Source of the DNA: a virus
Lineage: Duplodnaviria; Caudoviricetes
DNA: 64,000 bases
Virus record (IMG/VR): IMGVR_UViG_3300011989_000257
Location: 160,001-224,000 of that record
Strand: one strand, 5' to 3'
In this document: positions 673 to 32,604 of the stretch, one piece after another
How positions within the stretch are numbered: the first letter of the stretch is position 1
How the letters are laid out: each line of letters opens with the position of its first letter
Translations under genes and position numbers: made by a program
The notes under the pieces: generated by a model
Databases searched by the model: none
What the model was told of the DNA's origin: nothing
Seen by the model: the letters and a program-made list of their open reading frames with translations, nothing else

Positions 673-706
673 TTTGGTCAATTCAGATAAATTTCGTATC
701 TTTGCA
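673..706 (+). promoter_or_regulatory. Bacteroidota sigma-A type promoter driving a non-coding transcript
   Basis: TTTGG...CGTATCTTTGCA; no credible ORF before the terminator at 954-986. Confidence 0.85.
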
Positions 707-720
707 GTGTAAAAGAAATA

Positions 721-788
721 AGAGGTGTAAGGGCACATTTAACGTAGCGTTTTAGCGTAGTGTCGGTGGTAAGTCCCAAAACACCTTT
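721..788 (+). ncRNA. Candidate structured small RNA unit
   Basis: AGAGGTGT...ACACCTTT closing stem just after the predicted TSS. Confidence 0.45.
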
Positions 789-789
789 A

Positions 790-896
790 GGTAGGATAAA
801 ACAAACCATAGCGAATGGTAAGGTGAGGGAAGTGTAGGAGCGTTGCAGCCAGAGAGCCACTCTCACGTTGGAATACCAAGATTGGGGAAACCTACC
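790..896 (+). ncRNA. Candidate structured ncRNA, family A copy 1
   Basis: GGTAGG/CCTACC closing stem; shares GGATAAAACAA and TACCAAGATTGGGGAAACC with 20118-20200(-). Confidence 0.7.
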
Positions 897-953
897 ATTT
901 TGATTGAGAATTTCTGTTCTGAAGTCATATATCGTGTTTTTAGGTGAATATGG

Positions 954-986
954 ATGGGTTGTGTCGTGAGACATGACCCATTTTTT
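954..986 (+). terminator. Intrinsic terminator with GTGA tetraloop
   Basis: ATGGGTTGTGTC-GTGA-GACATGACCCAT followed by a T tract. Confidence 0.85.
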
Positions 987-1043
987 GTATTATTATAGAT
1001 TAAAATATAAATGCCCCTACCTTATTCAGATAGGAGCATAGAT

Positions 1044-1058
1044 GTACTTAATTAAGTC
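1044..1058. repeat. GTACTT-N3-TAAGT repeat copy
   Basis: GTACTTAATTAAGTC. Confidence 0.8.
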
Positions 1059-1067
1059 CAATGGTGC

Positions 1068-1376
1068 TTATAGTTGCACCCCTTGTAGTATTGGGGATGG
1101 AATATCATCTATCCATACATCAACTGCATCGTACACCTCGCAGCCACCGTGTGATGTCATAAAAATGGTTGTGGTGATGCTCTTATAGTTCACATCAAAA
1201 AATGTGTTGTTTCCAATGAACTTGCTGCCGCAGAAACATGGGTCGATGTTTAGGTTGTAGCCATTCAGTTTCTTAAAAGCGTCCTCAAATTTCATGGTGC
1301 TAACCAAACGGCACAAATCCTCTCTGTCTCTCTTAGCGAGTTCTGTTGCTAACTTGATGATAATTTCTCTTTCCAT
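1068..1376 (-). CDS. Hypothetical protein
   Basis: ORF directly downstream of promoter 1404-1437. Confidence 0.75.
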   Translation of the reverse strand: MEREIIIKLATELAKRDREDLCRLVSTMKFEDAFKKLNGYNLNIDPCFCGSKFIGNNTFFDVNYKSITTTIFMTSHGGCEVYDAVDVWIDDIPSPILQGVQL

Positions 1377-1530
1377 AATCTTTAATTGTTATTGTTTTGC
1401 TGGTGCAAAGATACGAAAAAAAATTGGAATAGCCAAACGAAAACAGATTTTTTTTTAGATTTATAATAAAAAATGTGCTGACTATCCTCACGGATAATCA
1501 GCACCTATATTGCTTATGGTCAAATCTTCT

Positions 1531-1782
1531 TTACTTTGTCATGGCTTTGAGTTCAGCCTTGATGCGCTTTGCAGTCTCACCTCTCCAAGTTGATGCGTTT
1601 CCAAGGAAATAGAGCACGATGGTCTTTGCTGAATCAAACATATAGTTGTCGTTGATAGAATCGAGCGTAGCCATTGCATCGAGGTATGGCTTTGCACCGA
1701 AATATACGTTCTTCCAATCGTTCTTGATGTCACGTGCAATCTCATAGAGAGGTCTTACGTTTGTTGTAGTTGTCTTTGCCAT
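1531..1782 (-). CDS. Conserved small phage protein
   Basis: RPLYEIA..DW..VYFGAKPYLDAM...YFLGNASTWRGETAKRIKAEL resembles a phage family I recall; has its own promoter at 1816. Confidence 0.8.
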   Translation of the reverse strand: MAKTTTTNVRPLYEIARDIKNDWKNVYFGAKPYLDAMATLDSINDNYMFDSAKTIVLYFLGNASTWRGETAKRIKAELKAMTK

Positions 1783-1971
1783 AATCTAAATCTGTTATTA
1801 ATTGTTGTTTGATGGTGCAAAGATACGAAAAAAAATTGAATTGGCAAAGAGAAACCAGTTTTTTAACATTTAATTAACATAGTTATATCATTTTCTTAAA
1901 AAGTATTAATAGGTTTGGTTATCTCACTGGAATTTCGTATCTTTGCATTACATTAATAAGATATAGTGTAT

Positions 1972-2178
1972 ATGGAAAAGAGAATCAAGTTTCAATATCA
2001 AGTGAAGCAAGTCAAGGGAATGTTCTCCGTGAGCACCATTGAGCGTTACGAGGTGAAAGAACTTATTCACGTTTGCGACCCCAATAAGAGCGACAGAGAG
2101 AATCTTGATGATGCTTTCTCGAAGGCTTGTGACTTGGGCGCTAATCCAAACAAGCAAGTTAGATGGAGTTTTATTTAA
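1972..2178 (+). CDS. Hypothetical protein
   Basis: Downstream of plus-strand promoter 1914-1947. Confidence 0.7.
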   Translation: MEKRIKFQYQVKQVKGMFSVSTIERYEVKELIHVCDPNKSDRENLDDAFSKACDLGANPNKQVRWSFI

Positions 2179-2192
2179 ATTGAAATAAGATT

Positions 2193-2477
2193 ATGGATAT
2201 TACAACAGAGATTAACAAGTTAAAAGCAGTTGCCAAGGAGAATGGTTTGGAAGTGAGGTTTCGTGACCATAAAACAAATATGGGTGATTTCTGCATATTT
2301 ATCTATGATAAATCTGTAAGAAAATCATATATGGTTGGCTTTGATGGGTATTGGGATAGTAAAACCTTGCCGTTTGATGTATGTCTGCGTTCAGCATACA
2401 ATTGGATTAAGAAGCGTGACAAACGTTACACCAAGGTAGATGGTATGTGGGTATATAATACGCATTTAAATCAATAA
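2193..2477 (+). CDS. Hypothetical protein
   Basis: ORF in plus-strand operon. Confidence 0.75.
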   Translation: MDITTEINKLKAVAKENGLEVRFRDHKTNMGDFCIFIYDKSVRKSYMVGFDGYWDSKTLPFDVCLRSAYNWIKKRDKRYTKVDGMWVYNTHLNQ

Positions 2478-2483
2478 TAGTTT

Positions 2484-2498
2484 GTACTTTTTTAAGTC
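2484..2498. repeat. GTACTT-N3-TAAGT repeat copy
   Basis: GTACTTTTTTAAGTC. Confidence 0.75.
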
Positions 2499-2505
2499 TT
2501 ATAAT

Positions 2506-2751
2506 ATGTTAATATTAGCAAAGTGTATTAAAGAAACATACACATGGGAAGGTGATGGAAAACAGCACAAGTTTTCAAAAGTTAAACTTGGTCACACTTA
2601 TGCATTCTCAGAGACCGCTGGAACCTATTGGCTTGATGTGTTTGCATCACCAAATAGAAAAGACTTTGAGGATTGCAATGGTTGGGTTCAAGCTTGTAAA
2701 AGAGGTCTTGAAAGTAAATATTTCAATGAAATGTTTAAAAGGGTAGATTAA
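2506..2751 (+). CDS. Hypothetical protein
   Basis: ATG start chosen downstream of the repeat. Confidence 0.7.
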   Translation: MLILAKCIKETYTWEGDGKQHKFSKVKLGHTYAFSETAGTYWLDVFASPNRKDFEDCNGWVQACKRGLESKYFNEMFKRVD

Positions 2752-2833
2752 TTCTACCTTTTATTTTTAATTTAAAATAACAATGGGATAGGCTAATAAC
2801 CTATCCCCTTTTTGTAGACCATTGAAGATGGGC

Positions 2834-2872
2834 TTCAATGGCAACAACGTTGCCGTTGTACTTATTTAAGTC
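2834..2872. repeat. Extended hairpin + GTACTT repeat
   Basis: TTCAATGGCAACAACGTTGCCGTTGTACTTATTTAAGTC; homologous to copies at 28.1-29.3 kb. Confidence 0.8.
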
Positions 2873-2874
2873 CA

Positions 2875-3186
2875 TTAATAATACATTCTAAAGGCAAAGT
2901 ATTGTGTTTCCACCCCATGAGAGAGATTGAATAAGTCAGTTTCAATCATATCCATCAGCCTTGCATAGTCCAACGTGAAATCGAAATGGAAGTTTTCCAA
3001 TGGTGCTTCAAGGTCATTGAGGAATACAAGCATCGAATAGTCATGCGCACCTTTGGTAATATACACATGGCTATATTTCTTTGCAAAGTTATCATCGCCC
3101 TTGAATGACATTGTTCTCACACCATTATCAATGAGTGTCTGCTTAATGAGTTCTTGATATAAACCCTTTGTAGTTGTCTTTGCCAT
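2875..3186 (-). CDS. Hypothetical protein
   Basis: ORF; MAKTTT N-terminus shared with the 1531 gene. Confidence 0.75.
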   Translation of the reverse strand: MAKTTTKGLYQELIKQTLIDNGVRTMSFKGDDNFAKKYSHVYITKGAHDYSMLVFLNDLEAPLENFHFDFTLDYARLMDMIETDLFNLSHGVETQYFAFRMYY

Positions 3187-3188
3187 AA

Positions 3189-3569
3189 TTAGAATGTTCT
3201 GTTATATTTCTTCGTATATTCCTCTGGTTGCCACACTCCCATACCTATTGAGACTACATTATCTTTATATCCTACATACAATGCAGAATTAAGAAAAGCA
3301 TTGGCATCAAGTTTGGGGTCTTTTGGTACTAATTTAACTGCCACTTTATTATCTGGCCATATATTTTTTTCTACCTTAAGCCATTTTAATATTTCATCCC
3401 ACAGAGAGTTAAGCCACTCGTCAAATGGGGAATGACCATCTCTGTCTGATTCAACAATGCGGAGATATACGACTGATGTATATGGATAATACTCAACAAT
3501 GTCGAACCTATCCAATGTCAACGTATCTTGCAATGAAAATCCTTTTATTTCTCTTCTTAACCTTTTCAT
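3189..3569 (-). CDS. Hypothetical protein
   Basis: ORF after promoter 3591. Confidence 0.75.
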   Translation of the reverse strand: MKRLRREIKGFSLQDTLTLDRFDIVEYYPYTSVVYLRIVESDRDGHSPFDEWLNSLWDEILKWLKVEKNIWPDNKVAVKLVPKDPKLDANAFLNSALYVGYKDNVVSIGMGVWQPEEYTKKYNRTF

Positions 3570-3664
3570 ATTTTAATTATTATTTGTTGATGCAAAGATA
3601 CGAAAAAAAACTGAGATAACCAAAAGATTACCCCAGTTTTAACAATTATTTAAAGAGAATCAGA

Positions 3665-4321
3665 TTATGCCCAACATCTTGCCCTTGCCCTTGGTGACAT
3701 ATGCGCACCCTCATTCATGACATCAACGCCCTCGTCAGCAATCTTCTGTAATGTTCCGATTACATCTTCCATTTCCCCAATGGTTTTAAGGCACTTTATA
3801 ACCACTGTGGCAAGTCCAAGTTGACGTCCAGCACCATAAATGGCTTCATGGTCTTTGAAACGCTCACACACACCACTTTCTTCAACACCTTTCATGAGGG
3901 ATTTAATATCCTCCTTCATATCATCGAGTTTCCAAGCCATCTTCTCAACATACTGATAGGCTGCTCTCTCGTTTCTCTTTGCCATCTTCTGAATCTCAGC
4001 AAGCAAAGCATTAAGTTCACCATATTTCACAGAATATGTTGCCATTGGCTTGCTTATTCCCTTATGGGCAAGAATCTCATTGGCTATCTTTCCCCAAGAG
4101 CGATACGCATGGCTCTTATACACTTGGATTGATTTAAGTGTTGTCATTGGTTTCAGCAACTTTTCAATCTGCTCTGCCACCGCACTAATTTCCTTGGTGT
4201 TAGTATCACTTACCTTGGTAGCCTTTTTCTTCTTCTTGGCTTTCTTCTCCTTGCGATAGGTGGCATTAAACTCTGTCATGGTCATTTTAACACCATCAAC
4301 TATGATTGTACTCTCTTCCAT
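3665..4321 (-). CDS. Hypothetical helical, Lys-rich protein
   Basis: 218 aa ORF. Confidence 0.8.
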   Translation of the reverse strand: MEESTIIVDGVKMTMTEFNATYRKEKKAKKKKKATKVSDTNTKEISAVAEQIEKLLKPMTTLKSIQVYKSHAYRSWGKIANEILAHKGISKPMATYSVKYGELNALLAEIQKMAKRNERAAYQYVEKMAWKLDDMKEDIKSLMKGVEESGVCERFKDHEAIYGAGRQLGLATVVIKCLKTIGEMEDVIGTLQKIADEGVDVMNEGAHMSPRARARCWA

Positions 4322-4342
4322 AATAATATTTTGTTTTTAGGT

Positions 4343-4663
4343 TTAATCTTCAAGATAACTCTTTGTTGATATAAGATGTTCCAATGCAATCTCACGCTTC
4401 TCCTTGTCAGAGATTAATCCCCACATAATCTTGTGTAGGTCTTGTGTTTCGAGCACTGATATATTTCTCATTCCATAGCCATCATCAAGCCACATGGTTG
4501 AATTGCCTTGCTTCTGCAATGACACGATGCGCTTTCTTGTTGTATGCTTAATCACACCCTCCTTGAAAACCACATAGAATGGCTTGCGGAGTTTAATCTT
4601 GCCAGAGGTCTTGGAATCAACCTTCTCCTTGATTAACTTTAATGTCTTACTTCTTGTAATCAT
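4343..4663 (-). CDS. Hypothetical basic protein (start corrected to MITRSK)
   Basis: Track start runs through promoter 4690. Confidence 0.75.
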   Translation of the reverse strand: MITRSKTLKLIKEKVDSKTSGKIKLRKPFYVVFKEGVIKHTTRKRIVSLQKQGNSTMWLDDGYGMRNISVLETQDLHKIMWGLISDKEKREIALEHLISTKSYLED

Positions 4664-4743
4664 AATTCTGTTTCTCCTTTTTATTATGGTGCAAAGATAC
4701 GAAAAAAAATTGAGATAACCAAAGATTATCCCAACTTTTTTTA

Positions 4744-6303
4744 TTAATCTATAGAAATTTTCTTCTTTGTCAGTTCTTGTTCTGTCAAATCCACGAAAAT
4801 CAACTCTTTTCTTGCCCTTGTAATGGCTACATACTTCAGGTTCATTTCTTGTTGTTCTTGCCATTTCTTTTGTTGTGGATATTTCAATGGCAGCTTGTTT
4901 GGCAATAAAATAAATACTCTATTTGCTTCCAATCCCTTGCTCTTATGTGCAGTTGATAAGGTCACAGCGTGCTCAATCTTATCATCAGTAAACATCTTAT
5001 TGATATAAGACTTCAACTGCATGGTATCTTTGATGGAATACATACAAATGTTCTCAATGCACTTGCACCTATCTTCTAAGTTGAGATACTTCATTGCGTT
5101 CTTTGCAGCAGTCTCGTCACATTTTCTTTCCTCTTTGATGATATTAATCATCTTTTTCTTTTCATCTTCCAAATATGCCAACACTTCTTTGATATTTGTT
5201 GTATTCGCATTTTCAATGAGGTTTTTAAGGTCTTGTGCAATGTCCTTGCCCTTGACAACTGCGGTAATGCCACTCTCAATCATTTTCATACAGAGACCTA
5301 CAAGGGGTGCAGATGTCCTACATAATACCATATCGTCCTCTCTGAACAGAGATTTATTAAGTTCCTTGGTATGATATATCTTCCCATCAATCGCCCCATC
5401 ATGCGCCTTAATTTGAGGTACGATTTCTTGTGCAAGCGCAATCATGTTTGTGCCACAACGATAGTTCACAGACAATGGCAATTCAATGGTATTGTCTTGG
5501 TTGGCAATCTTATCAAATGAGTTACAATCAGCACCTGCAAACCCATTGATGGCTTGGTTTCTGTCACCAACTGCGATAAATCTACCATTCTTTGCAGCGC
5601 ATAGCATCAACTCTCTTTGTGCTCTGTTAAGGTCTTGGCACTCGTCAATAAACACATACTTATATGATGGAATTGCTTCTTTATGAAACAATGGCAATAC
5701 AACCATGTCTGTATAGTCAATGGTTAAATCCTTTGGCATCTTATAAGCATCAGCAAGCAATATATTGCATACCTCAATTTCGTCATATAATGTAATGAGA
5801 TTGTGTTCATCACATAGTTCTCTCAACTTGGATAAATCATTCTCACTATGCTTAATGAGATTGACCCTTGCAAGCGCATATAACTTAGCCACATTGCAGC
5901 AGAAACCAAATACCTTTGCAGCATCCGTATCTGGGGTTATAATCCTTGACAATGAATATACATTCTGTTTCACATACTTCTGATACTTCCAATCATCCAC
6001 CTTGACAAACATCTTGTATTGAGGACAATTATAATACTTCTTTAATACATGAAAACCAAATGCGTGCAATGTCGATACCTCTGCATAACCTTTTAATTTC
6101 GTCTTTAATTCCTCTACAATAAGTTTATTAAACGCAAGAAATAAAACATTACGTTCTTTCTCTCCCAATCGCTTACAAGCAGAAACAATGGTTGTGGTCT
6201 TTCCACTACCCGCAACTGCATTGATGGCAATGTTCTCGCTACCATTCTCGACTGCATCGAAAATGTCCAACTGATAATCTGAATACTCTAATCTCTTTAA
6301 CAT
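4744..6303 (-). CDS. Superfamily 1 (UvrD/Rep-like) helicase
   Basis: AVAGSGKTT Walker A, FIDECQD Walker B, VGDRNQAINGF, NYRC, STAHKSKGLE, YVAITRA; start corrected to MLKRLE. Confidence 0.92.
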   Translation of the reverse strand: MLKRLEYSDYQLDIFDAVENGSENIAINAVAGSGKTTTIVSACKRLGEKERNVLFLAFNKLIVEELKTKLKGYAEVSTLHAFGFHVLKKYYNCPQYKMFVKVDDWKYQKYVKQNVYSLSRIITPDTDAAKVFGFCCNVAKLYALARVNLIKHSENDLSKLRELCDEHNLITLYDEIEVCNILLADAYKMPKDLTIDYTDMVVLPLFHKEAIPSYKYVFIDECQDLNRAQRELMLCAAKNGRFIAVGDRNQAINGFAGADCNSFDKIANQDNTIELPLSVNYRCGTNMIALAQEIVPQIKAHDGAIDGKIYHTKELNKSLFREDDMVLCRTSAPLVGLCMKMIESGITAVVKGKDIAQDLKNLIENANTTNIKEVLAYLEDEKKKMINIIKEERKCDETAAKNAMKYLNLEDRCKCIENICMYSIKDTMQLKSYINKMFTDDKIEHAVTLSTAHKSKGLEANRVFILLPNKLPLKYPQQKKWQEQQEMNLKYVAITRARKELIFVDLTEQELTKKKISID

Positions 6304-6345
6304 AACATTTGCAAAGATACGAAAAAAAAGTGAGATAGCCAAATA

Positions 6346-6531
6346 CTATCCCATCTTTTTTGCACGTTCTGTTTTCAATTCATAATACTTTTTCAACTCC
6401 TTTGTTACGTATTCCTCGTATTTACGGAGTTCTTCTACCCATACCTTACAATCTTCTGCCGATATAGTTACACCTTGCCTACGAGCAACTGGAGTGGTGA
6501 GAATGGCAATCATGCTTTCTAATGCGTTCAT
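6346..6531 (-). CDS. Hypothetical protein
   Basis: ORF in operon. Confidence 0.65.
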   Translation of the reverse strand: MNALESMIAILTTPVARRQGVTISAEDCKVWVEELRKYEEYVTKELKKYYELKTERAKKMG

Positions 6532-6533
6532 AA

Positions 6534-6803
6534 CTATGCTATTCTAACCACCATACACTTTTCAGCACCCCAATTCTTATAAGCACCGACAGAAAGCGCA
6601 TTGATAACCCTTATTTCATCATCTGTGAATGTACCATAATGTCGCATAGCCTTTGCAGTTGACTTAGGAACACAACGTACAACATTTGAAGTGTAGTCAC
6701 CCTTTTCGTCTGGAAAACTAATCAATTGAAATACTTTTCTTCCCTCATTGCCCTCTATACTACTCACAATGCGAGACAAATGCTCAATATTTCTTCTTGC
6801 CAT
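6534..6803 (-). CDS. Hypothetical protein
   Basis: ORF in operon. Confidence 0.7.
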   Translation of the reverse strand: MARRNIEHLSRIVSSIEGNEGRKVFQLISFPDEKGDYTSNVVRCVPKSTAKAMRHYGTFTDDEIRVINALSVGAYKNWGAEKCMVVRIA

Positions 6804-6819
6804 ATTCTTATTAATCTAT

Positions 6820-6969
6820 TTAATTATCAGAACCATATACAATCTCATTGGTCTCAGTATCGAGAATGAACTTAGCACCATCATGTTCAGCAGATATTTG
6901 TGCATCCACTAAATCATCGTATTCATCAATAACTTCATCGTTGATGTCATAAACCTCAAAACGTTTCAT
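6820..6969 (-). CDS. 49-aa highly acidic protein (not in ORF track)
   Basis: MKRFEVYDINDEVIDEYDDLVDAQISAEHDGAKFILDTETNEIVYGSDN; follows promoter 6999 and an AGGAG motif. Confidence 0.75.
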   Translation of the reverse strand: MKRFEVYDINDEVIDEYDDLVDAQISAEHDGAKFILDTETNEIVYGSDN

Positions 6970-7070
6970 ATTAATCTCCTTTTAATTGTTTTCTGTGGTG
7001 TAAATATACGAAAAAAAAATAAATCTACCAAAGATTTCACGTTAATTTTTATTTATTTCGTATAATATTC

Positions 7071-7828
7071 TTATTCTATTGAAATCGTGTCATAAGTTCC
7101 TCTCTCTGTCTTTTCCCAAGTGATTGTAAAGTTATCCACGACATCACCAAATTCCAAGTGCAATATTGAATGAATATCATCACAATTTGTAAATGAAACG
7201 TTTGTGCAGTTCTTGAAATGTCTTTCAACAATATCCTTAACAACACCCTTAAAGAATACATTGTAGATGTTGGTAATACCAATCTTCTTCAATGCTTCAA
7301 TGTTTGCTTGATGAAATGTTTTATTCTCCATAATCTTTTTAATTTATAATACATATACATCTTCCCTTGTATCGTAGTGCTCATATTCAATGGTTTCACC
7401 CAAGAGTTTTGCAGTTCGCTTGCAATTCTTGACATCTTCCCACGTGCATCCCATTGTGGTACGATAGCAGAAACCATTGCGAATCCAATCAACTGAATAT
7501 ATCTTAGTCTTTTTGACTATTCTCTTTTTCATCTAACAAATCAATCTATTTTCAAAATATATTTTTCTGCTGCTTTGATATTATACATATTGCCCTTCGT
7601 TCTATTACCATCACCCCAAATATAATCCACACGATTATAATCTGGAATGTCATACTCACACGCAATTTGGTCAATGCCATTATGTGTATATTTATATACT
7701 TTGAGGTGCGAATAGCAATTGCCGTTCTCTGCAACAATCTTATATTTGCCGCCACCCACAACAACCAATGATTCTGATGAATAACTTGGTGAATCGTTCT
7801 TCACTAATACTTCAATCGTCTTTTCCAT
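7071..7828 (-). CDS. Operon of three hypothetical proteins (7541-7828, 7344-7532, 7071-7331)
   Basis: Tightly packed ORFs after promoter 7863. Confidence 0.7.
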
Positions 7829-7926
7829 ATTCTTTATCTCCTTTTAATTGTTATTTCTATGGTGCAAAGATACGAAAATATTTTGAATTGACAAAACAAA
7901 TTAACACATTTAACAAAAATAACATT

Positions 7927-7954
7927 GGGGTGAAAGCCGAATTGCCTTCACCCC
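7927..7954 (-). terminator. Terminator ending the ncRNA transcript
   Basis: GGGGTGAA...TTCACCCC hairpin with a T-rich tail on the minus strand. Confidence 0.65.
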
Positions 7955-8000
7955 TTCATCGTTCTCAAATGTAACAATTAAAAAGATTAGATTAGATTTG

Positions 8001-8082
8001 TTGGTAAGCATGGAATCGAACCACTCAAGTTTGCTCTATAGAACAGAGCGCAGTACAAGCCATTACTACTATTACTTACTAA
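8001..8082 (-). ncRNA. Degenerate tRNA-like RNA (anticodon arm reads TCT, Arg-like)
   Basis: D-like arm AGTA/TACT, GCTCT-GTTCTAT-AGAGC arm, T arm GTGG-TTCGATT-CCAT, imperfect acceptor stem. Confidence 0.5.
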
Positions 8083-8087
8083 ACTTG

Positions 8088-8202
8088 TTGGTAGAGGCGA
8101 ATTTGAATCGCCGAAGTCACCGAAGTGACACATCAAGCACGAACTTGATGCCCATTTGTCCACATCTACCCTTGCGGATAGTTCTCCTCTGGTATCTACC
8201 AA
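8088..8202 (-). ncRNA. Multi-arm tRNA-like RNA
   Basis: 8-bp closing stem TTGGTAGA/TCTACCAA, three internal hairpins and a T-arm GGCGA-TTCAAAT-TCGCC. Confidence 0.6.
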
Positions 8203-8245
8203 AAGGTGGTTTTTAATAAGTTGTCCACCGCAACCCTATATCTCG

Positions 8246-8354
8246 TAAGTAAGGTGCTTTCCGCTGAAAATCTTAATGGTGTTCTCGTCTTCTTCGTAAT
8301 GCCCTCACATCTTGAACTATTCAGAGGGATTTGTTCTCCATTTGACCTTACTTA
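8246..8354 (-). ncRNA. Candidate structured small RNA
   Basis: Perfect 10-bp closing stem TAAGTAAGGT/ACCTTACTTA just after promoter 8377. Confidence 0.55.
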
Positions 8355-8441
8355 ATGTCTATCGTTTCATTGACGATGCAAAGATATATCTATTTTTCTT
8401 AAATCCCAAATTTTCGCATACCTTTTAACAGTTCTTAACAA

Positions 8442-8774
8442 TTAATCATCTTCGGTGTTTTCAATCATATCAAATATGTGTGTGAATACGATTGCTGCAA
8501 GTGTTGGAGCATACGTTTTTATTGTTTCCCAATCAAAATAGTATTGTTCCTCATTGTCATCAATAAACCAAAGTTCAACACCAAATTGGTCGTTAACACG
8601 GATTGATAACAAATCACCCTTGAGCACACACTTTGGAAACTTGATTGTTAAGTTCTCACTGAATGGCTTTGGCAGATTTGGGAAATATTCAAATTCCTCG
8701 CCATTAAACTCGCCCTTTGCAATGATGAACATCGCAATTAACGGCTCTACTCCTATTGTAATATTCTTATTCAT
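8442..8774 (-). CDS. Hypothetical protein
   Basis: ORF. Confidence 0.7.
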   Translation of the reverse strand: MNKNITIGVEPLIAMFIIAKGEFNGEEFEYFPNLPKPFSENLTIKFPKCVLKGDLLSIRVNDQFGVELWFIDDNEEQYYFDWETIKTYAPTLAAIVFTHIFDMIENTEDD

Positions 8775-8777
8775 ATT

Positions 8778-9437: not shown

Positions 9438-9438
9438 A

Positions 9439-12284: not shown

Positions 12285-12302
12285 TTTCTTTTCTTTTTTA
12301 AT

Positions 12303-12758
12303 TTATAATAATACTTTATCAGTTCCATCCCAACAAATGTTCCAAAGATTGCCCATTGTGACACACTTTGAACCAAGGCATCTATCATTCTTTGACCATT
12401 TATAGATACGAACTTTGATTGTCCATTGGTCTAACTTATGCCTAAGAGTGTCCAACACTTCATCCCAAGTCGCAATATCCTTGATATGCTTTGGGTCACT
12501 ATTTTTATGCTCTATAATCAATGAGTATGTCATAACTCAATCTACCTCAAAATTCTTCTTATCAAACTCCTTATAGTCAAAGATACAAGCGAACATTTCA
12601 CTTGAATTAGCCGTACAATAGTAGTCCAAGTCTTCAAGGCTCATGTGCTCCATTTCAGCGATTTCGTCCAAACGAATATCAATCAACTCAATTTCAGTTG
12701 GAGTGTATTCATTTTCCAAATCCTTAATGAGATTGTTTCTTACTTCTTTAATATCCAT
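12303..12758 (-). CDS. Two hypothetical proteins (12537-12758 acidic; 12303-12533)
   Basis: After promoter 12782; start corrected to MDIKEV. Confidence 0.7.
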
Positions 12759-12887
12759 ATTACTTATCTTTTTAATTGTAATGCAAAGATACGAAATTAT
12801 TTTGAATCTACCAAAAAAAATGGGAAGAAAATTTAAAAAATCTCTCCCCATTCAAACAAACATTCACAACTTATTAACTTCTCTAAG

Positions 12888-13547
12888 TTACCATTCTTCA
12901 CAGAATTTCACTTCGACAGATGTATCTTTTATTCCTTGGCTTGCAAGGTAATCACTAATCGCCTTATTCAAACCATCTTCCAAACTCTTAGGGTCTTTAA
13001 TGGCTTTGCGCATTGTATGGGTATATACCTCAAACTTCTCATTAAATTTGCATCTATTTGCAGCAAGTTCCTCATATCCCTTATAATCACACTCTGAAAG
13101 CAATCCTGCAAACGAATGGAAATTCGCATCAACCAATCTATCTTCCAACAGAATCTTAATGCGCTTATCAGCCTTTTGGTGCTCACGCATCAACTTCATA
13201 AGAGAATCATATCCATACCCATAATCACACTTTCTGTTTGGGCGATGCACATACTTTTCACGTTCTTCTTCGGTGAAATAGATTGAATCATCTTTGATGA
13301 AATTATCAATACATTCCTTGCACTCTTTGATGTTGCTCGCCCAAGAACCATAATGCTGCGATGGCTTTTTCTCATTGCCCTCTTTACAGAAATCATAATG
13401 AATCTCTTTCTTCTTTGGATAATCAGAATAACGTGATGAATCAAATATGCTACGCTCATACTCAATCTCAGTTACCCTAATGATACGATAACCATTATAA
13501 ACCTCTAAAGGTGTTCTGCTTGTCTTATGACCACTTCTTACTCCCAT
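12888..13547 (-). CDS. Hypothetical protein
   Basis: 219 aa ORF after promoter 13583. Confidence 0.8.
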   Translation of the reverse strand: MGVRSGHKTSRTPLEVYNGYRIIRVTEIEYERSIFDSSRYSDYPKKKEIHYDFCKEGNEKKPSQHYGSWASNIKECKECIDNFIKDDSIYFTEEEREKYVHRPNRKCDYGYGYDSLMKLMREHQKADKRIKILLEDRLVDANFHSFAGLLSECDYKGYEELAANRCKFNEKFEVYTHTMRKAIKDPKSLEDGLNKAISDYLASQGIKDTSVEVKFCEEW

Positions 13548-13634
13548 AATCTAATCTCCTATTCTTTATTTGTTTAACTTGATGCAAAGATACGAAATTA
13601 TTTTGAATTGACCAAGAAAAAAGATAAAAAAATA

Positions 13635-13666
13635 ACCCACAAGTGCCATTTTTAACACTTGCGGGT
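13635..13666 (-). terminator. Intrinsic terminator
   Basis: ACCCGCAAGTG...CACTTGTGGGT + T tract on the minus strand. Confidence 0.75.
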
Positions 13667-13699
13667 CGAAAAGGAGATTTGAATTATTGTTTCACAAGA

Positions 13700-14073
13700 A
13701 CAAGATTATAGGAGGTTTGTTTTCTTGCGTAGGCGAACCTTATTCCCTCTTTGCGATGGATGCCTATCCCCATCTTTCAACTCAATCTTGTCTTATATCT
13801 TAAAAGGAGAAACTAATTAGTGGCGGAGTTGCACTTTCCTTACTTGACTACACAGCCAGCCTCTTCTTCCAAATGCGCATTGGAATGTCAAACGACCTAC
13901 TCTTACCCTTAGACGAGGTTATTTCTCCTTTGGGGCACTCAGATTTCCTAAGTCCTCTGAGTGTTCTTCCCCTTATATCTTTAAAAATGTGGGAAATGTA
14001 CACTAAGTTTACCGCATCACCGCCATGTACCATCACTGACCTGCGCAGTAATATCAGTGACTTTTTGACCCAC
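13700..14073 (-). ncRNA. Cluster of 3-4 candidate structured RNAs in a long 3' region
   Basis: Closing stems at 13700-13791, 13803-13931 (10 bp), 13932-13972, 13989-14073. Confidence 0.5.
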
Positions 14074-14086
14074 GTTTATTATTCTC

Positions 14087-14482
14087 TTACTTCAACAATC
14101 TTTCGATTACTTTTTCGCAGTCCTCAAAGTAGCAATTATTATTGTAACCTCCACGATAGTCTCTTTCATCCTTTGCAGTTCTGCAATACATTGGCTGCAA
14201 CCAATTTCCATCATTTTTTAGGGCAACGTGAGTTCTTCCACCACGTCCACAACCATTGTCATAACTGAAATATACATACTTGTCACCACACTTGATAAAC
14301 CCACTCATGTCATAGTGTCCATACGAGGGATTAACAACCTCTCCATCAAGTGATTTCGCAATCTTCCTCATTGCATTGAAGAAAGCCACTTGAAATGAAT
14401 GAAATTCCTTTGATACACGAAAACCATCGTCCTCTAATGTACGACCATTCCACTTTTTGATAAATGCCTTAACGTCTGCCAT
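14087..14482 (-). CDS. Hypothetical protein
   Basis: ORF after promoter 14509. Confidence 0.8.
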   Translation of the reverse strand: MADVKAFIKKWNGRTLEDDGFRVSKEFHSFQVAFFNAMRKIAKSLDGEVVNPSYGHYDMSGFIKCGDKYVYFSYDNGCGRGGRTHVALKNDGNWLQPMYCRTAKDERDYRGGYNNNCYFEDCEKVIERLLK

Positions 14483-14559
14483 AATCTAAATCTTTAATTG
14501 TTTAACGATGCAAAGATACGAAATTATTTTGTAATAACCAAACTTTTTTGGAACTTTTT

Positions 14560-14847
14560 TTAAAGAAATTCTATTGTTACATTTTCTGTTATCTGTGGGA
14601 ACGTCTTACAGATAATTCTCTTATGCCAATCTGTCAGCACACAACACTGACTAAACTTAAATAGTGCTACATCATGCCGTAAGTCACTGACCTCACCCAT
14701 AAATAATGAAAGCGTCTTGAACTCATTCTCATTAAGACTAAGGGTAGCAACATTAGGCTCGCCATAACTTCCACCAATGCAACTTCCGTCTCCAAACTCC
14801 TTGAAGAACTTGTTCTTATCGGTAATCTTAACCTTAATTCTCTTCAT
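14560..14847 (-). CDS. Hypothetical protein
   Basis: ORF after promoter 14876. Confidence 0.75.
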   Translation of the reverse strand: MKRIKVKITDKNKFFKEFGDGSCIGGSYGEPNVATLSLNENEFKTLSLFMGEVSDLRHDVALFKFSQCCVLTDWHKRIICKTFPQITENVTIEFL

Positions 14848-15006
14848 AACTCTCTAATCTTTAATTGTTTAACAATGCAAAGATACGAAATTATTTTCAA
14901 TTGACCAAACCTTTTAACGTTTTTAACAAAAGAGAAATGGTGGCTAGGCTTTGATTCACTTACCTAGTCACCACCAACGTCAAAACAAATTAAAAAAGAT
15001 TATGAT

Positions 15007-15405
15007 TTATGTGAACTCTTCCAACATATCCTTGAAAGTCAATGGATATAACTCTCTGTTCCTACCACAATCAGCACACATCTTCATGAGGTTGCGCTCA
15101 ACAAACTCCTTGATGATGTCATGAGTGCTTTTCTCATACTTGAATTGGGGAATTGCCACCATTGGATTGTGCTTACCTCTAATCTCAACGAGAACCTTGC
15201 GGATAATCTTTTCTTGCCAAGGGAGATTATACTTTGACTTTAGAATCTTCTCAACAATGCCATTAACAGACATTCCACTATCCTTGAAATATGCTTTGCA
15301 CATTGCACTATCGAGAATAAAATTGGACTTCTTCTTATAAGCCTCAACCAACTTCTCATTCTTTGCTTGTGCTTCCAACTGCTTTCTTACTTTTGAATTG
15401 CTCAT
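15007..15405 (-). CDS. Hypothetical protein
   Basis: ORF after promoter 15433. Confidence 0.75.
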   Translation of the reverse strand: MSNSKVRKQLEAQAKNEKLVEAYKKKSNFILDSAMCKAYFKDSGMSVNGIVEKILKSKYNLPWQEKIIRKVLVEIRGKHNPMVAIPQFKYEKSTHDIIKEFVERNLMKMCADCGRNRELYPLTFKDMLEEFT

Positions 15406-15604
15406 AACCTTTAATGTTTATTTGTTTAACGATGCAAAGATACGAAATAAAGTTGGAATAACCAAACTTAATCCGTTAATAAACGTTAAACACATTTTAA
15501 AGCCCTCTGAGCCACTTTCTCTGTCCAAGTGAATAAGTTATAGGAACAATACGTTTTAACGTCTCAGAAACAAAATAAAACACTATTGGTATTTAAAGTT
15601 CTCT

Positions 15605-15716
15605 CACGTGCGCACGTGTGCGCATAATATATTTAAATTAAAATATAATATTAAATAAATTTATAATAATATATTATATAAGAAAAGAGAATATATTATT
15701 ATATAATAATATATTC
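15605..15716. other. Palindrome-rich, very AT-rich intergenic element
   Basis: CACGTGCGCACGTG (15605-15618) and a perfect 28-nt palindrome at 15689-15716. Confidence 0.6.
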
Positions 15717-15848
15717 CAGAAAAGAAATAAGGGTTTGATTGCTCCCCAACAACCAAACCCTTCAATTTAAAAAGGTTTTATTCCTTGAAAAAATTCAAGG
15801 GAAACTTCCTCAATTTTTCCCTTGAATTATATTATAAATATTATGAAT

Positions 15849-16304
15849 CTATTGTTTCTTCAAGAACTTGTCGAATAAAGACACATACTTCTGACACTCG
15901 GCCATTTCCGCTTCAAGTTTCTTAAGCCGCACATCTTTCTCCCACCAAAGAGCAAACTTGATGTCATTGACAATCTTTTCCAAGTCATTAACAAACAAAT
16001 CTTCCAAGGCAATCTTATTAACGATTTGGAAAGATGGAACTTTACAAATGGGATATTTACGAATCCTTGCGCCATACTCTGTACCCTCGTCATTGGTTGT
16101 ATAAATCGCTCTGCAACCGATATAAACGTACTGCTTAGTAATCTTACCATAGCGGACTTCTTGTTCACCAATACGATTGGCTTCATACTTGCATTGCTTT
16201 AGATATGCTTCGGAACACTCAAAACCTCTGCCTACAATCTTACGGAGTTCAGCAAGTAACTTCTGCTGCTTTTCCTTTAATTCAACGTTTTCTTCAAGTA
16301 CCAT
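15849..16304 (-). CDS. Hypothetical protein
   Basis: ORF after promoter 16333. Confidence 0.75.
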   Translation of the reverse strand: MVLEENVELKEKQQKLLAELRKIVGRGFECSEAYLKQCKYEANRIGEQEVRYGKITKQYVYIGCRAIYTTNDEGTEYGARIRKYPICKVPSFQIVNKIALEDLFVNDLEKIVNDIKFALWWEKDVRLKKLEAEMAECQKYVSLFDKFLKKQ

Positions 16305-16438
16305 AATCTAATCTCCTATATTTTAGTTGTAGTGCAAAGATACGAAATTATTTTCAATTTACCAAAAAAAATAGTGGAAAATGTCAAGATTGAAACAATC
16401 TTTAACGTTTCCAACTTGAAAAAGGAGATTAAAGTGTG

Positions 16439-16523
16439 TAGGGAAGGTGGGATTCGAACCCAACGAGCCCAGATGGGCATGGCTTTTTAAGAGCCACGTG
16501 TCTACCAGCTGCACCACAACCCC
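16439..16523 (-). tRNA. tRNA-Leu(TAA), type II, with imperfect acceptor and T stems
   Basis: GGGGTTG..TGGTAGACAC, TGGCT-CTTAAAA-AGCCA, long variable arm, GGGTTCGAATCCC. Confidence 0.8.
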
Positions 16524-16603
16524 ATATAAAAAAAAATTCCTTCTCTATCTATCACAGACTGAGAAGGAACATAAACGTAATCTAAATGCCATGAAAAACA
16601 CTT

Positions 16604-16894
16604 TTATTCAACCTTGACAAACACCACAGAACCTTTTGTAATGGGGTTCTTTGATAATGCCCAAGTTATTGTTCCCTCAACCTTATAATCGTCCCATAAA
16701 AGTGAAACCTTATCGTGTAAGGCATCAATTTCGGTTAATTCGACCTTATCAACATGAGGTAACACAATCATATCATCACTACCCTTAACACAAGTGTTAA
16801 GCATATTGAAAACACTTTCAGCATTACGTTCAATAACGTTAAACTCAAAGTTTCTATTGATTGCGTCCTTTATGTTATTACTTAGTGTACTCAT
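16604..16894 (-). CDS. Hypothetical protein (probably leaderless)
   Basis: ATG is 2 nt from promoter 16897. Confidence 0.7.
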   Translation of the reverse strand: MSTLSNNIKDAINRNFEFNVIERNAESVFNMLNTCVKGSDDMIVLPHVDKVELTEIDALHDKVSLLWDDYKVEGTITWALSKNPITKGSVVFVKVE

Positions 16895-17057
16895 ATTGCA
16901 AAGATATAAATAAATATTGACAATTCCAAATTTTTAAGAGTTTTTTTAATCTTCTTCCAACTCTTTCTTCCATTTTGTGTAAGTTGGGTCACTTATAATA
17001 TCCCATGCCATAACACCTATGCAGAATAACAGAAATAGTCCAAACATAATTCAATCT

Positions 17058-17303
17058 TTAATAATTATAAACAAGTGAATTGCAAGCCTCTTTTACCGCA
17101 TTGATACGTGCAGTTGTTGAAGCGTTTGTGTAACCACAATTATCAAAGGTTGCGCTCTTATTGGAATGGTCAACCCTTGCAATCTGATTGCCGTGATACC
17201 AAACCTTTGTAATGTTGTTTTCAGTTTTAACAACAACGTTGCTGCCACTCCAATTGGTCTTGCGAGTAACCGCATCACAGATTCTTTCTTGATATTCTCT
17301 CAT
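17058..17303 (-). CDS. Small phage protein
   Basis: HGNQIA...TTARINA; after promoter 17331. Confidence 0.75.
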   Translation of the reverse strand: MREYQERICDAVTRKTNWSGSNVVVKTENNITKVWYHGNQIARVDHSNKSATFDNCGYTNASTTARINAVKEACNSLVYNY

Positions 17304-17375
17304 AATCCTATTATTTAAATTGTTTGATGGTGCAAAGATACGAAATTATTTTCACACCACCAAACTTTTTAGAGA

Positions 17376-18173
17376 TTATTTTTCGATTTTTTCGATTGTT
17401 CCCTTGTCACCATTGATAATATATCCAATTTCCTTTGCGATTGTTGGGAAGAACACATCATCAAAGTATGTGCTTCCGTCACCCTCTGCATAGAGATTTA
17501 CATCAAATTGATATGCTAACGGATAGAGCATTACACGATTGAAAATCTCACCCCAATAGGCGATAATGATACCCTTGATGTCCTTTTTGGCAACAATGTC
17601 ACCATCATTAAGGTTATACCATTGGATAAAGCGAGAACCCAAAGCCTTAACCTTTGCCCAATCGCTTGGTTTCATGCTACCTCTCAACACTCTCACATCA
17701 TCATCATTGGTGAGGTCATAGATGTATGAATCATCACCATATAAGGAACTTTCCTCAATAAATGCGTTCCACAACTGGACAAGCACTTCATCAGTGAGTT
17801 TAATGGTAGCAATGAGGGTATTTTTCTCAACTCCCTTATAGGTATTGACAACCCACTCATTGATAAACTTCTGTTTGTCATAGCCATTCTTTGCCACAAA
17901 CTCCCTAACATTCTCAATGGTTGGTGTTCCCTCTCCCCAATTAATCTTCATGAGGTCATTGTAGAACTCTGTGGTTGGGTCACGGAAGATACCCTCTTTC
18001 TCTGTATAGTCTTTCATGAAATCATCAACGTTCATGCCATACTTCTGATTGATGTATTCAGAAATCTTATCGTCAGAGGGATATTCCAAACCCTTTTTGC
18101 GGCAAATATCACGAATTACCTTGCGGAAACTGATTACCTTATTCGCTTTCTCAACTAAGTTTAATTCTGCCAT
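17376..18173 (-). CDS. Hypothetical protein (start corrected to MAELNL)
   Basis: After promoter 18212. Confidence 0.8.
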   Translation of the reverse strand: MAELNLVEKANKVISFRKVIRDICRKKGLEYPSDDKISEYINQKYGMNVDDFMKDYTEKEGIFRDPTTEFYNDLMKINWGEGTPTIENVREFVAKNGYDKQKFINEWVVNTYKGVEKNTLIATIKLTDEVLVQLWNAFIEESSLYGDDSYIYDLTNDDDVRVLRGSMKPSDWAKVKALGSRFIQWYNLNDGDIVAKKDIKGIIIAYWGEIFNRVMLYPLAYQFDVNLYAEGDGSTYFDDVFFPTIAKEIGYIINGDKGTIEKIEK

Positions 18174-18274
18174 AACTTTTAATCTCCTATTACTTTTAAA
18201 TTGTTTGATGATGCAAAGATACGAAATTATTTTCACATCACCAAACTTTTTAACTTTTTTTAGCCTAACTCATT

Positions 18275-18842
18275 TCAGTTGTTACAAAGAAACTCATAAA
18301 TTTTGTCACAAATTTCTTCGTCTAAATCGTCTATATCCAAGTCAGCGACATACGATATGCCATTATTCTTGTATGAGAACTTCAAACCACAATCATCAAG
18401 AATGGTATCAACTTCTTTATCATCAATGATAATAGGCTTGCCATCAGTCAAAGCCATTAACTCATTGTGCTCAAGTTCACCATAGCCTACTACTGCTTTA
18501 TAAAACTTTCTCTGTGTCATAGGTTTAATCTCTATAAATTGCTACTTCACCAAGTTGTTGTTTTAAATCTCCAAAGCCATCAGTCATGGTGTAAAGGTCT
18601 GCACCATCAGCAATGGCTTTCTGCAAGAAATGAGCATATTCCTCATTGCCCTCACTAAATGCGTCAGCAATCCATACATTTGCCATTTCAGTATCAACCT
18701 CTTCAAAGTCGTACTGCATAAGCCAAAATGGGTCATACTCAACCATTTCTACTGCAATGTCATGCTGCTCTTTTGTCAAACCACAAGATACTACCTCGCA
18801 GTTGTCTAACTTTGTTCTCTGAACTCCTAAAATTGTACTCAT
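18275..18842 (-). CDS. Two acidic hypothetical proteins (18525-18842, 18275-18520)
   Basis: After promoter 18872. Confidence 0.75.
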
Positions 18843-18927
18843 AATCTTTAATGTTTTATTTGTTTTGACAATGCAAAGATACGAAATTTATCCCAATTGA
18901 CCAAATTAAAAGTGTTAAAAAACGCAA

Positions 18928-18957
18928 ATGGGAACTTATCTCACGACAAGTCCCCAT
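18928..18957 (-). terminator. Terminator (GTGA loop) ending the long non-coding transcript
   Basis: ATGGGGACTTGTC-GTGA-GATAAGTTCCCAT-TTGCGTTTTT. Confidence 0.75.
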
Positions 18958-19036
18958 CCAAACAACTAAAAACCTAACAATCTTAAATTATGGAAAACAA
19001 AGAGCGTCTAAACAACGCAAATCGAGAATTTTTGTA

Positions 19037-20032
19037 CCCTATAAAGTGATGAAACTCTCAACTACAAAACGACACGACCGATGGTTAAGTAGCGTATGGC
19101 AACCAAAAAGCAGAATATACGTAATCATCCACTTTCCAATTCCATCATAGGGCATTTAAAAATGTGAGGTGGAACACGTCCGAAATTACATGATGGCAAA
19201 GGCAAGTGCAACTTATTGCATCGCAGTTCGGCATCTCCCATTTGGGGCGCATCGAATCCACCTCACTTGTTTCTCACACCTTTAGTAGCATACTATGACA
19301 ACACCGCAAACGATTAACGTCATAGTCGCTGTGAGTAGGGTTGATTTCACAACTTAATTTGCAGTAATTTAGGGCATGGCAAGCGCATATACTCGGCTAA
19401 ATTGGGTTCGCTCGCCTAACATCGCCCCTCTCTATTAAAAATGGACACCCTATAACTAACACTCCGCATACTTGGTAGTAGAATTGTGCGCACATTACTC
19501 CTACGCAGACATTGTTTCAACTTCGGTATGTCCTAATCGCCCTTGGTAAGTGGTTTAATGGGCCATTCGGCATCGCTCTTGCTGACCTCCGTAGAGGTGG
19601 CTAAGCGTAATGTGTCTCGGAAATGGCGGCTCTTTGGATATTGGTCGCTCATTGACACTTAATTGGCTCGGACGGAACTATTTATGTTCCAAATTCACTT
19701 AACTCCACGGCTTAAGTTCATTCATACGACGGCATTGTAACGTTACACGAACTTTACCCTATCTCCGCCTAATTGGGGTTTTGTAATTATGGTTAAATTT
19801 ACTTTTTATCAGTGTTATATATATATATCATTCCTTAGTTGGGTCGGTCTCTAATCATACTCTATGTGTGCGAGCATAGGGGCAATCTCGCTTTATATGT
19901 TCTCCCCTTAAAATTTATAATCGGCGCAGTAATCTAAAAAAATTATTTTCCTAAACTTAATACCCTTATGAGGGCGGAGGTCTTTCCATTATCTTTCCTC
20001 TTTAGTAAACTTGGGTGCTTACCCCAACTAAG
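19037..20032 (-). ncRNA. ~1-kb structured non-coding transcript (array of RNA domains)
   Basis: Promoter 20043 to terminator 18928 with no ORF >=60 aa; closing stems at 19834-20032 (10 bp), ~19447-19795, 19371-19429, 19273-19335, 19164-19266 (10 bp), 19037-19152. Confidence 0.7.
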
Positions 20033-20117
20033 CGTTTTGTAATGCAAAGGTACGAAATTTTTTTGAACTGACCAAACTTTTTCGGTGTTTTAACTTCGTT
20101 TAACCTTTGAGAAAATT

Positions 20118-20200
20118 AGGTAGGGTTTCCCCAATCTTGGTACTGACACCGCCACTATCACGAGTTGCTGACCATTTGTTGGCTTGTTTTATCCCTACCT
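20118..20200 (-). ncRNA. Candidate structured ncRNA, family A copy 2
   Basis: AGGTAGGG/CCCTACCT stem; homologous to 790-896(+). Confidence 0.7.
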
Positions 20201-20204
20201 AAGA

Positions 20205-20274
20205 AACGGCATCGAGGGCAAGGTGGTAAGCGATTTGCGCTGTATATATGCACTACCCCCAATCTTAAGCCGTT
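20205..20274 (-). ncRNA. Candidate structured RNA unit
   Basis: AACGGC/GCCGTT closing stem; also contains AAGATTGGGG. Confidence 0.4.
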
Positions 20275-32602: not shown

Positions 32603-32604
32603 AG

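Follow-up and report, generated by a model that had tools for sequence, protein, structure and literature searches.

The DNA analyzed here is a 64,000-nt window (bases 160,001-224,000) of the 412,514-bp IMG/VR phage record IMGVR_UViG_3300011989_000257 (Duplodnaviria; Caudoviricetes), which CheckV rates as complete. The window has a G+C content of ~35%, and its minus strand carries nearly all genes. An earlier note, made from the sequence, had singled out four islands without credible open reading frames (ORFs): island 1 (712-986, plus strand) and islands 2 (7927-8370), 3 (13635-14075) and 4 (18928-20274), all on the minus strand. Covariation among homologs and negative Rfam scans give good support to the conclusion that the four islands are putative transcription units of conserved structured RNAs. 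These RNAs are probably specific to the phage and selected across a clade of related megaphages, and they probably form a mixed repertoire, not one system.

The absence of credible ORFs was borne out. When the 412,514 bp were scanned, the genome's longest stretch without an ATG-initiated ORF of ≥60 aa contained island 4, and other ORF-free gaps were present within the same 27 kb. The sole island-spanning frame is an ORF of 98 aa on the minus strand of island 1; in both closest relatives, stops and frame changes interrupt it. Reading TGA, TAG or TAA as sense opened none of the islands. Stop-free frames of 94-96 codons were found on the opposite strand in islands 1-3; opposite-strand ORFs in these islands and alternative genetic codes were both rejected (the island 1 frame broken, those of islands 2 and 3 antisense to RNAs with covarying helices; no code that opens the islands). 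A two-part promoter of the Bacteroidota type (TTTG, ~19 nt, TAnnTTTG) precedes island 1 (673-704, plus strand; -33 TTTG and -7 TAnnTTTG), island 2 (8379-8410, minus strand) and a 1.1-kb unit within island 4 (20045-20076, minus strand), and no ORF of ≥40 aa follows these promoters at 673-704(+), 8410-8379(-) and 20076-20045(-). The claim that the islands lie downstream of a strong promoter therefore held for islands 1, 2 and 4 and failed for island 3: here it comes directly 3' of ORF 14087-14482 and lacks a separate promoter, but its homologs in G001-G003 have one. Nor is the promoter distinctive of the islands: it occurs at least 36 times in the window, upstream of almost every small gene, and its type suggests a Bacteroidota-type host. 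Sigma-70-type sites were not enriched (78 observed vs. 73.8 expected).

All four islands close, as had been stated, at strong hairpin and T-run terminators, found for island 1 at 952-986 on the plus strand (14 pairs; homologous to the island 4 terminator) and on the minus strand at 7927-7954 (island 2), 13634-13667 (island 3; 15 pairs) and 18925-18960 (island 4; 16 pairs). The islands are laid out as units with closing stems and AU- or U-rich linkers, again as described, and two stems are perfect over 10 bp (8246-8255/8345-8354 and 13803-13812/13922-13931); a 16-nt stem pairs 19158-19173 with 19257-19272. The number of units had been put at ~15, two of them tRNA-like (tRNA, transfer RNA); there are two such units, but the total came to ~18. 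Folding-energy z-scores were -2.3 for island 1, -3.2 for island 2 and -3.5 for island 3.

Relatives were recovered by a 16-nt motif search and later pattern searches. They form a clade of at least 10 related phage contigs of 30-413 kb, with complete members of 409,537, 412,435, 412,753 and 295,155 bp and many fragments; BLAST found no similar phage among those in GenBank. All four islands have homologs in G001-G005 at 72-88% identity. Conservation is patchy, with whole units kept, missing or swapped between relatives, and blocks of ≥40 invariant bases survive amid diverging flanks. Judged by this comparison, the islands are modular strings, not single RNAs. Covariation among homologs, which had been proposed as a check on structure, was positive for a tRNA-shaped RNA, a junction motif, unit 3c and the core of island 4. 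The Rfam 15 check had also been proposed and was run at gathering thresholds on the window, permissively (expectation value, E, ≤10) on positions 1-22,000, and permissively on the loci holding islands 1, 2 and 4. No island unit matched a family in these scans, even permissively and not even as a weak tRNA match; the sole family reported at gathering was tRNA-Leu(TAA) at 16438-16523. Known ribozymes, one of the roles envisaged for the units, found no curated model at E≤10 (hammerhead, twister, pistol, hatchet and hepatitis delta virus-like models in the islands), and no riboswitch model matched in the islands in the permissive Rfam 15 scans.

The tRNA-shaped RNA (TLU) of island 2 (8088-8202, minus strand) was delimited by covariation and a covariance model. 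Its fold has an 8-bp acceptor helix and a D-like stem of 3 bp, which encloses a variable hairpin insertion along with two invariant strands. The anticodon-like arm measures 9 bp and has a loop of 4 nt in all copies; a T arm and a variable arm of 5 bp, looped by UUCG, complete the structure. Nine homologs share this cloverleaf-like fold of 37 pairs, with compensatory changes at 17/37. In the alignment of 52 distinct sequences, pairing is found in 98.9% of cells and two-sided change at 32 of the 37 pairs, a count inflated somewhat by ~10 ordinary class II tRNAs among the 52 rows; none of 500 shuffles and no slid control came close. Strong matches to the covariance model numbered 57 in the fetched loci, and tandem runs reached five copies. 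This genome has three copies, the other two inside a tRNA array beside tRNA-Met. Compared with a tRNA, the five-helix cloverleaf-like fold is present by covariation, with the D region enlarged, and the 7-nt anticodon loop is absent; ARAGORN made no call, and the Rfam tRNA model (RF00005) gave no match at E≤5 on locus L122. Because the anticodon arm ends in a 4-nt loop, the RNA cannot decode.

Class II tRNAs (Leu, Ser, Tyr) resemble the tRNA-shaped RNA in the acceptor stem, the T arm with a U[U/G]CAAAU loop, the long variable arm and the discriminator A, and the best weak match of its model was the phage tRNA-Tyr. They lack its 9-bp anticodon-like arm with a 4-nt loop and its hairpin-enlarged D region. 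The 3' trailer reads discriminator A, C, then A or U. ARAGORN found 42 tRNAs in the whole genome, including a CUA suppressor, and a transfer-messenger RNA (tmRNA), most of the tRNAs being 100-140 kb downstream of the island region; all 42 have this same trailer, and all 42 are without an encoded CCA. Outside the window, the phage encodes a CCA-adding-type nucleotidyltransferase (genome 242412-242819; PF01743, 90 bits) and an RtcB RNA ligase (genome 303671-304891; PF01139, 191 bits). The tRNA-shaped RNA keeps what tRNA-maturing enzymes read, namely the acceptor helix, the T arm and elbow, and a tRNA-type 3' trailer. Ribonuclease (RNase) P, RNase Z and a CCA-adding enzyme, such as the phage encodes, could mature it like a tRNA, and the product would be a non-decoding look-alike that occupies or recruits acceptor-end- or elbow-binding proteins. 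It could plausibly mimic tRNA for factors that recognize the acceptor end or elbow, and the anticodon-less tRNA shape offers a clean test of which tRNA-binding factors the phage wants occupied. YrlA RNAs (RF02553), the tRNA-like Y RNAs found with Ro60/Rsr, are non-decoding and have tRNA-like acceptor, T and D features. The tRNA-shaped RNA shares these properties and differs in being a complete cloverleaf closed by its own acceptor stem; the YrlA model had no match in the Rfam scans, permissive ones included. The second tRNA-like unit of island 2 (8003-8079, minus strand) is a near-cloverleaf with a UCU anticodon-like loop and received no ARAGORN or Rfam call. Relatives carry large inserts at this site, so the unit has not been kept as a decoding tRNA.

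The junction motif (module A) occurs twice in the window. Copy 1, in island 1 (790-896, plus strand), comprises P1, P2, a variable P3, P4 and a U-run and scored 100 bits with model R2; copy 2, in island 4 (20119-20199, minus strand), scored 73.9 bits. A metagenome scan and covariance model gave 45 matches, 37 of them distinct. The 5' part of the layout has a P1 of 6-8 bp, a 10-nt A-rich joining strand and a P2 of 3-4 bp with a 7-nt loop. The 3' part has P3 as a variable hairpin of 20-60 nt, a P4 of 3-4 bp with a 4-nt loop, and a GGAAA strand leading to P1, always followed by a U-run. In the 37 variants, six of seven P1 pairs change on both sides, a level reached by none of 500 shuffles, and the closing stem of P3 is built from at least four different complementary sequences. 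The junction strands contain ~45 invariant bases, a level of conservation typical of specific ligand or protein recognition, and these bases point to recognition of a specific partner. Its settings vary: copies come behind a conserved 58-aa gene, lie within units that hold no gene, follow unit 3c in G004, or stand in tandem. Riboswitch-like features are its aptamer-like invariant core and a P1 with a U-run behind it, but the motif is sited after a gene or in units without genes, tandem copies exist, and no riboswitch model matched it. The motif may bind a protein or small ligand specifically and carry its own 3' end or terminator. The 58-aa gene (ORF 20273-20449, minus strand) encodes a conserved basic protein with no Pfam match and in relatives always lies directly upstream of the island 4 junction motif, which makes the protein a candidate partner of the RNA. 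Directly after its stop codon is the 5' domain of island 4 (20203-20271, minus strand), delimited from the sequence and from relatives.

A scan of 185,579 bacterial and archaeal genomes (one per species) gave zero exact-pattern matches to either the tRNA-shaped RNA or the junction motif, at exact-motif sensitivity only; at this sensitivity, both main motifs are confined to this phage clade. Eight loci (L003, L010, L011, L014, L030, L032, L039 and L049) are small viral contigs with the Rfam Betaproteobacteria-1 RNA. About 200 nt from that RNA, on the opposite strand, they carry two blocks of the junction motif (10 nt and 16 nt), similarly spaced. As junction motifs these contigs reached only E 0.2-0.6 with the covariance model, and the P1 helix was not seen. 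A conserved block of ~22 nt was also noted in 20077-20118, the interval that separates the junction motif from the 1.1-kb unit's promoter, and at homologous positions in G001, G003, G004, G006 and G007. It is kept in all promoter-bearing relatives; possible roles are a site for a regulator or an upstream element of the promoter.

The 1.1-kb unit of island 4 (20038-18925, minus strand) has its own promoter and terminator. The islands had been described as free of credible ORFs, which is correct overall, but the start of this unit holds two conserved 7-codon micro-ORFs. Micro-ORF 1 (19966-19989, minus strand; MERPPPS-stop) begins ~55 nt past the promoter, after an A-rich leader of the type that real genes have, and follows the pattern ATG-Glu-Arg-Pro-Pro-Pro-(Ser/Met)-stop. 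In ~18 sequence variants, the only substitutions are GAA/GAG, AGA/CGA, CCG/CCA and CCC/CCT, four of four being synonymous, with one frameshifted exception. As ~27% of single changes are synonymous, we estimate a chance probability of p ~0.005. Micro-ORF 2 (19835-19858, minus strand; MIRDRPN-stop) is conserved in relatives as Met, one to three residues, Arg-Asp-Arg-Pro, zero to three residues and a stop, and its ATG stays in frame through five N-terminal configurations. RAPP-like motifs mark ribosome arrest peptides (PMC12992588, PMC10951233), and RxPP with x as Gly, Ala, Ser or Pro was reported to induce arrest (PMC12992588). Micro-ORF 1 carries such a C-terminal R-x-P-P near its stop, as MERPPP(S/M)-stop in the ~18 variants; its Arg-Pro-Pro-Pro adjoins the stop codon, and its location at the 5' end of the predicted transcript is that of a leader peptide. 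It departs from RAPP-like arrest peptides in having only 6-7 residues, the known ones also needing the N-terminally adjacent region, and in lacking a downstream protein gene to regulate, as the rest of the 1.1-kb unit has no ORF of ≥40 aa; stalling is a prediction from the motif. The 1.1-kb RNA would start with two translated micro-ORFs with arrest-type Arg/Pro ends, and paused ribosomes could protect or gate the untranslated RNA beyond them. Such an arrangement would tie translation state to non-coding RNA production, and to our knowledge arrest-type micro-ORFs heading an otherwise untranslated RNA have no precedent.

Beyond the micro-ORFs is a ~335-nt multi-helix core (19443-19778, minus strand) with a conserved 8-nt palindromic apical loop, defined from relatives and shared pairs. 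Core homologs in G010 (79% identity) and G003-G006 have 46 shared predicted pairs, 10 of them compensatory, and this comparison lends moderate support, from few lineages, to the predicted fold. It is followed on the minus strand by unit 4.4 (19371-19432), a conserved hairpin domain also present in G004 and G010; unit 4.5 (19164-19266), recognized by a 9-bp closing stem with a U-run and a highly conserved interior; and unit 4.6 (19036-19153), with a 7-bp closing stem, beside or in place of which relatives carry a tRNA or intron-like tRNA. Several relatives have an ordinary tRNA near the end of island 4.

Three island hairpins (13874, 14042 and 19487) have the self-complementary hexamer UGCGCA in their apical loop, against ~0.25 occurrences expected in 2.5 kb, and the hexamer is not enriched genome-wide (42 found vs. 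37 expected). Palindromic loops of this kind could let domains of the 1.1-kb RNA pair with each other. The 3' tails of two islands showed a different complementarity. The tail of island 2 (7962-8000, minus strand), picked out by its duplex z-score, is antisense to the translation-initiation consensus of the phage, with a top-10 duplex z of -4.2, 0/40 shuffles as good and third rank against 150 random windows. The tail of island 4 (18962-19020, minus strand), found by the same measure, combines a small hairpin and a U-rich stretch antisense to the translation-start consensus including its AUG (z of -3.8, 0/40 shuffles as good), and ranks first against 150 random windows; no other block of the island is as conserved. 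The idea that a gene starts here on the plus strand was rejected, as no upstream promoter was seen on that strand by eye and the peptide length varies. Islands 1 and 3 had no unusual complementarity to translation starts. The two tails suggest regulation of phage messenger RNAs in trans; alternatively, they may be remnants of inverted gene starts.

Units of the other islands were likewise delimited by stems and relatives. The 5' hairpin domain of island 1 (723-786, plus strand) has a 6-bp closing stem and is kept in G001 and G002. Unit 2a (8246-8354, minus strand), recognized by one of the perfect 10-mers, has a clamp stem of 9-10 bp that is invariant. Within it, the internal strand on the 3' side is conserved and the interior can be exchanged, relatives having two unrelated versions. 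This handle-plus-cargo build differs from the ACAGCAA (Ro60-type) handle, which was looked for and rejected for the islands: the strict form occurs nine times in the genome and not in the window, and the loose form is absent from the islands. The small hairpin 2b (8205-8236, minus strand) is kept in G003-G005. Island 3, on the minus strand, begins with unit 3a (13989-14073), a 5-bp closing stem of four G-C and one U-A pair with a U-run. Its inner stem covaries, the stem below the palindromic loop being wholly different among G000, G002 and G003 and the 8-nt loop constant. Unit 3b (13803-13972) has two stem-closed domains with one UGCGCA loop and was found in this genome only among those compared. 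Unit 3c (13698-13792), a conserved ~95-nt domain, is present in nine genomes with four compensatory pairs, and its closing stem covaries by eye.

That the islands are transcription units for clade-specific structured RNAs is supported directly by conservation, covariation, non-coding status, the conservation signatures of the micro-ORFs, promoters and terminators; the functional steps we infer. Several observations weigh against parts of this reading. Most relatives are close, with the consequence that part of the covariation counts reflects shared ancestry, and the alignments were fitted to the models. The P2 and P4 helices of the junction motif, plausible in the model, have stems that never vary, although the P4 loop does, and P4 of some members has an extra C-G pair. 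Unit 4.5 is almost without covariation, and the palindromic loops are invariant, the core loop included when palindrome switching was sought there as a sign of kissing. The 3' tail of island 3, tried as an anti-translation-start seed, was not significant once trimmed. In G010, a 1-nt deletion alters the micro-ORF 1 peptide and the RNA sequence is kept; the 12-nt core of micro-ORF 2 shows no variation, wobble positions included; and the stop codon of each micro-ORF lies in the loop of a small CCC/GGG hairpin. A constraint at the RNA level, besides or instead of coding, is therefore possible for both. Finally, efficient termination at every closing stem with a U-run would leave the downstream units unmade.

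Large structured RNAs of phages and prophages such as GOLLD and ROOL (RF01998, RF03087) often lie beside tRNA genes or are co-transcribed with them, and conserved palindromic kissing loops drive self-assembly in GOLLD, ROOL and OLE (bioRxiv 10.1101/2024.12.08.627333). The island 4 RNA resembles them in its 1.1-kb length, in ending beside a tRNA in several relatives and in its conserved palindromic apical loop. It differs in being modular, with a domain content that varies by genome, and in starting with micro-ORFs; the GOLLD and ROOL models gave no match at gathering or at E≤10. The tRNA operon of phage T4 also yields small stable RNAs, species 1 and 2 (RNA C and D), which are co-transcribed with tRNAs and released by the tRNA-processing machinery. 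The units described here are likewise phage-encoded small structured RNAs, but there are many more of them, most have sites away from the main tRNA array, and some belong to many-copy families. At least three RNA families at this locus appear to be undescribed, and the locus also has the unusual pairing of arrest-type micro-ORFs with untranslated RNA; the kind itself, tRNA-linked phage non-coding RNA operons, is known. GOLLD, ROOL and the T4 stable RNAs are a long-standing puzzle, to which the locus adds at least three well-delimited candidates with comparative support. All three, the tRNA shape, the junction fold and the RNA headed by micro-ORFs, are confined to a clade of very large phages and are open to synthesis, structure work and pull-down without phage culture. 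A joint reading can be framed in which a CCA-tailed, non-decoding tRNA look-alike serves as decoy or carrier for acceptor-end-binding factors, the junction is a new ligand- or protein-binding fold, and the 1.1-kb RNA, gated by RxPP arrest, self-associates through UGCGCA kissing loops into a GOLLD/ROOL-like scaffold. Taken whole, it is unlikely to be right.

The earlier note had instead seen one early-expressed RNA arsenal, processed into units that act as decoys or mimics against RNA-sensing or RNA-cleaving defenses of the host. The heavy tRNA investment of the phage (42 tRNAs, tmRNA, suppressor tRNA, RtcB and a CCA-adding-type enzyme) speaks for such a role, tandem multi-copy tRNA-shaped RNAs would fit a titrating decoy, and the motifs are limited to this phage clade. 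The folds of the units are unrelated, and each unit varies from genome to genome independently of the others, a modular variation of different RNA types that argues against a single system. Parts of the proposed role are disfavored too. Lacking the anticodon loop, which most tRNA-targeting defenses cut, the tRNA-shaped RNA, the best characterized of the units, cannot mimic the target of anticodon nucleases and is a poor decoy for them, and the islands contain no repeat arrays of the type III toxin-antitoxin or RNA anti-CRISPR kind, nor any other defense-linked array. As a single arsenal the islands thus make a doubtful case; a conflict centered on tRNA is plausible with RtcB and the CCA-adding-type enzyme as context.

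A second alternative is that the units act mainly in cis, as decorated terminators, stabilizers in 3' untranslated regions and leader-peptide attenuators that tune the transcription and messenger RNA stability of neighboring small genes, and not as independent RNAs in trans. Most units do end in a closing stem with a U-run, the region of junction motif copy 2 adjoins the stop codon of the conserved 58-aa gene, island 3 comes after an ORF and lacks a separate promoter, and arrest-type micro-ORFs are classical attenuator parts. Yet islands 1 and 2 and the 1.1-kb unit are gene-free between their own promoters and terminators, and the next downstream genes have their own promoters, placed after the island terminators. 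The tRNA-shaped units are found inside tRNA arrays too, and the junction motif occurs in tandem and in differing contexts, all of which makes a mainly cis-acting role rather improbable. Functionless decay of tRNA genes and small ORFs is largely refuted by covariation and has very little chance of being correct: one degenerate tRNA-like unit that is very different between relatives and the patchy unit content would suit it, but compensatory changes maintain helices, invariant blocks of ≥40 bases persist while flanks diverge, and units are multi-copy and form tandem arrays. Small proteins missed through unusual starts or a recoded stop are the most improbable explanation of all, for although the phage carries a CUA suppressor tRNA and frames of 94-96 codons without a stop run opposite islands 1-3, the one at island 1 is interrupted in relatives, those of islands 2 and 3 are antisense to RNAs with covarying helices, sense reading of TAG, TGA or TAA opens no island, and coding-type conservation is restricted to the two 7-codon micro-ORFs.

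In the remainder of the region, Pfam searches of ten neighboring proteins recognized a UvrD-like helicase as the sole match. The tRNA-Leu(TAA) gene at 16438-16523 is the only standard tRNA of the window and lies outside the islands. It has 3' to it a CU-rich, anti-Shine-Dalgarno-like tail, like that of island 3 (window 16395-16605), and directly upstream of it, at 16527-16601, is a weak, sub-threshold match to the Rfam family FopS. A separate ORF-free gap of ~440 nt, outside the four islands, was noted around window 15560-15770. It has long AT-only palindromic runs, a GC-rich inverted element with two UGCGCA copies 10 nt apart and then a terminator (15762-15729), and its sequence suggests a protein-binding or origin-like region more than a gene for an RNA. 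Other stretches of 270-340 nt without an ATG-initiated ORF of ≥60 aa lie in the same early-looking region, at 6804-7070, 22660-22997, 23346-23664 and 26595-26866. Farther along, window 32580-34890 holds four to six tandem paralogous small genes, with direct-repeat families of 36-112 nt at a spacing of ~380-730 nt.

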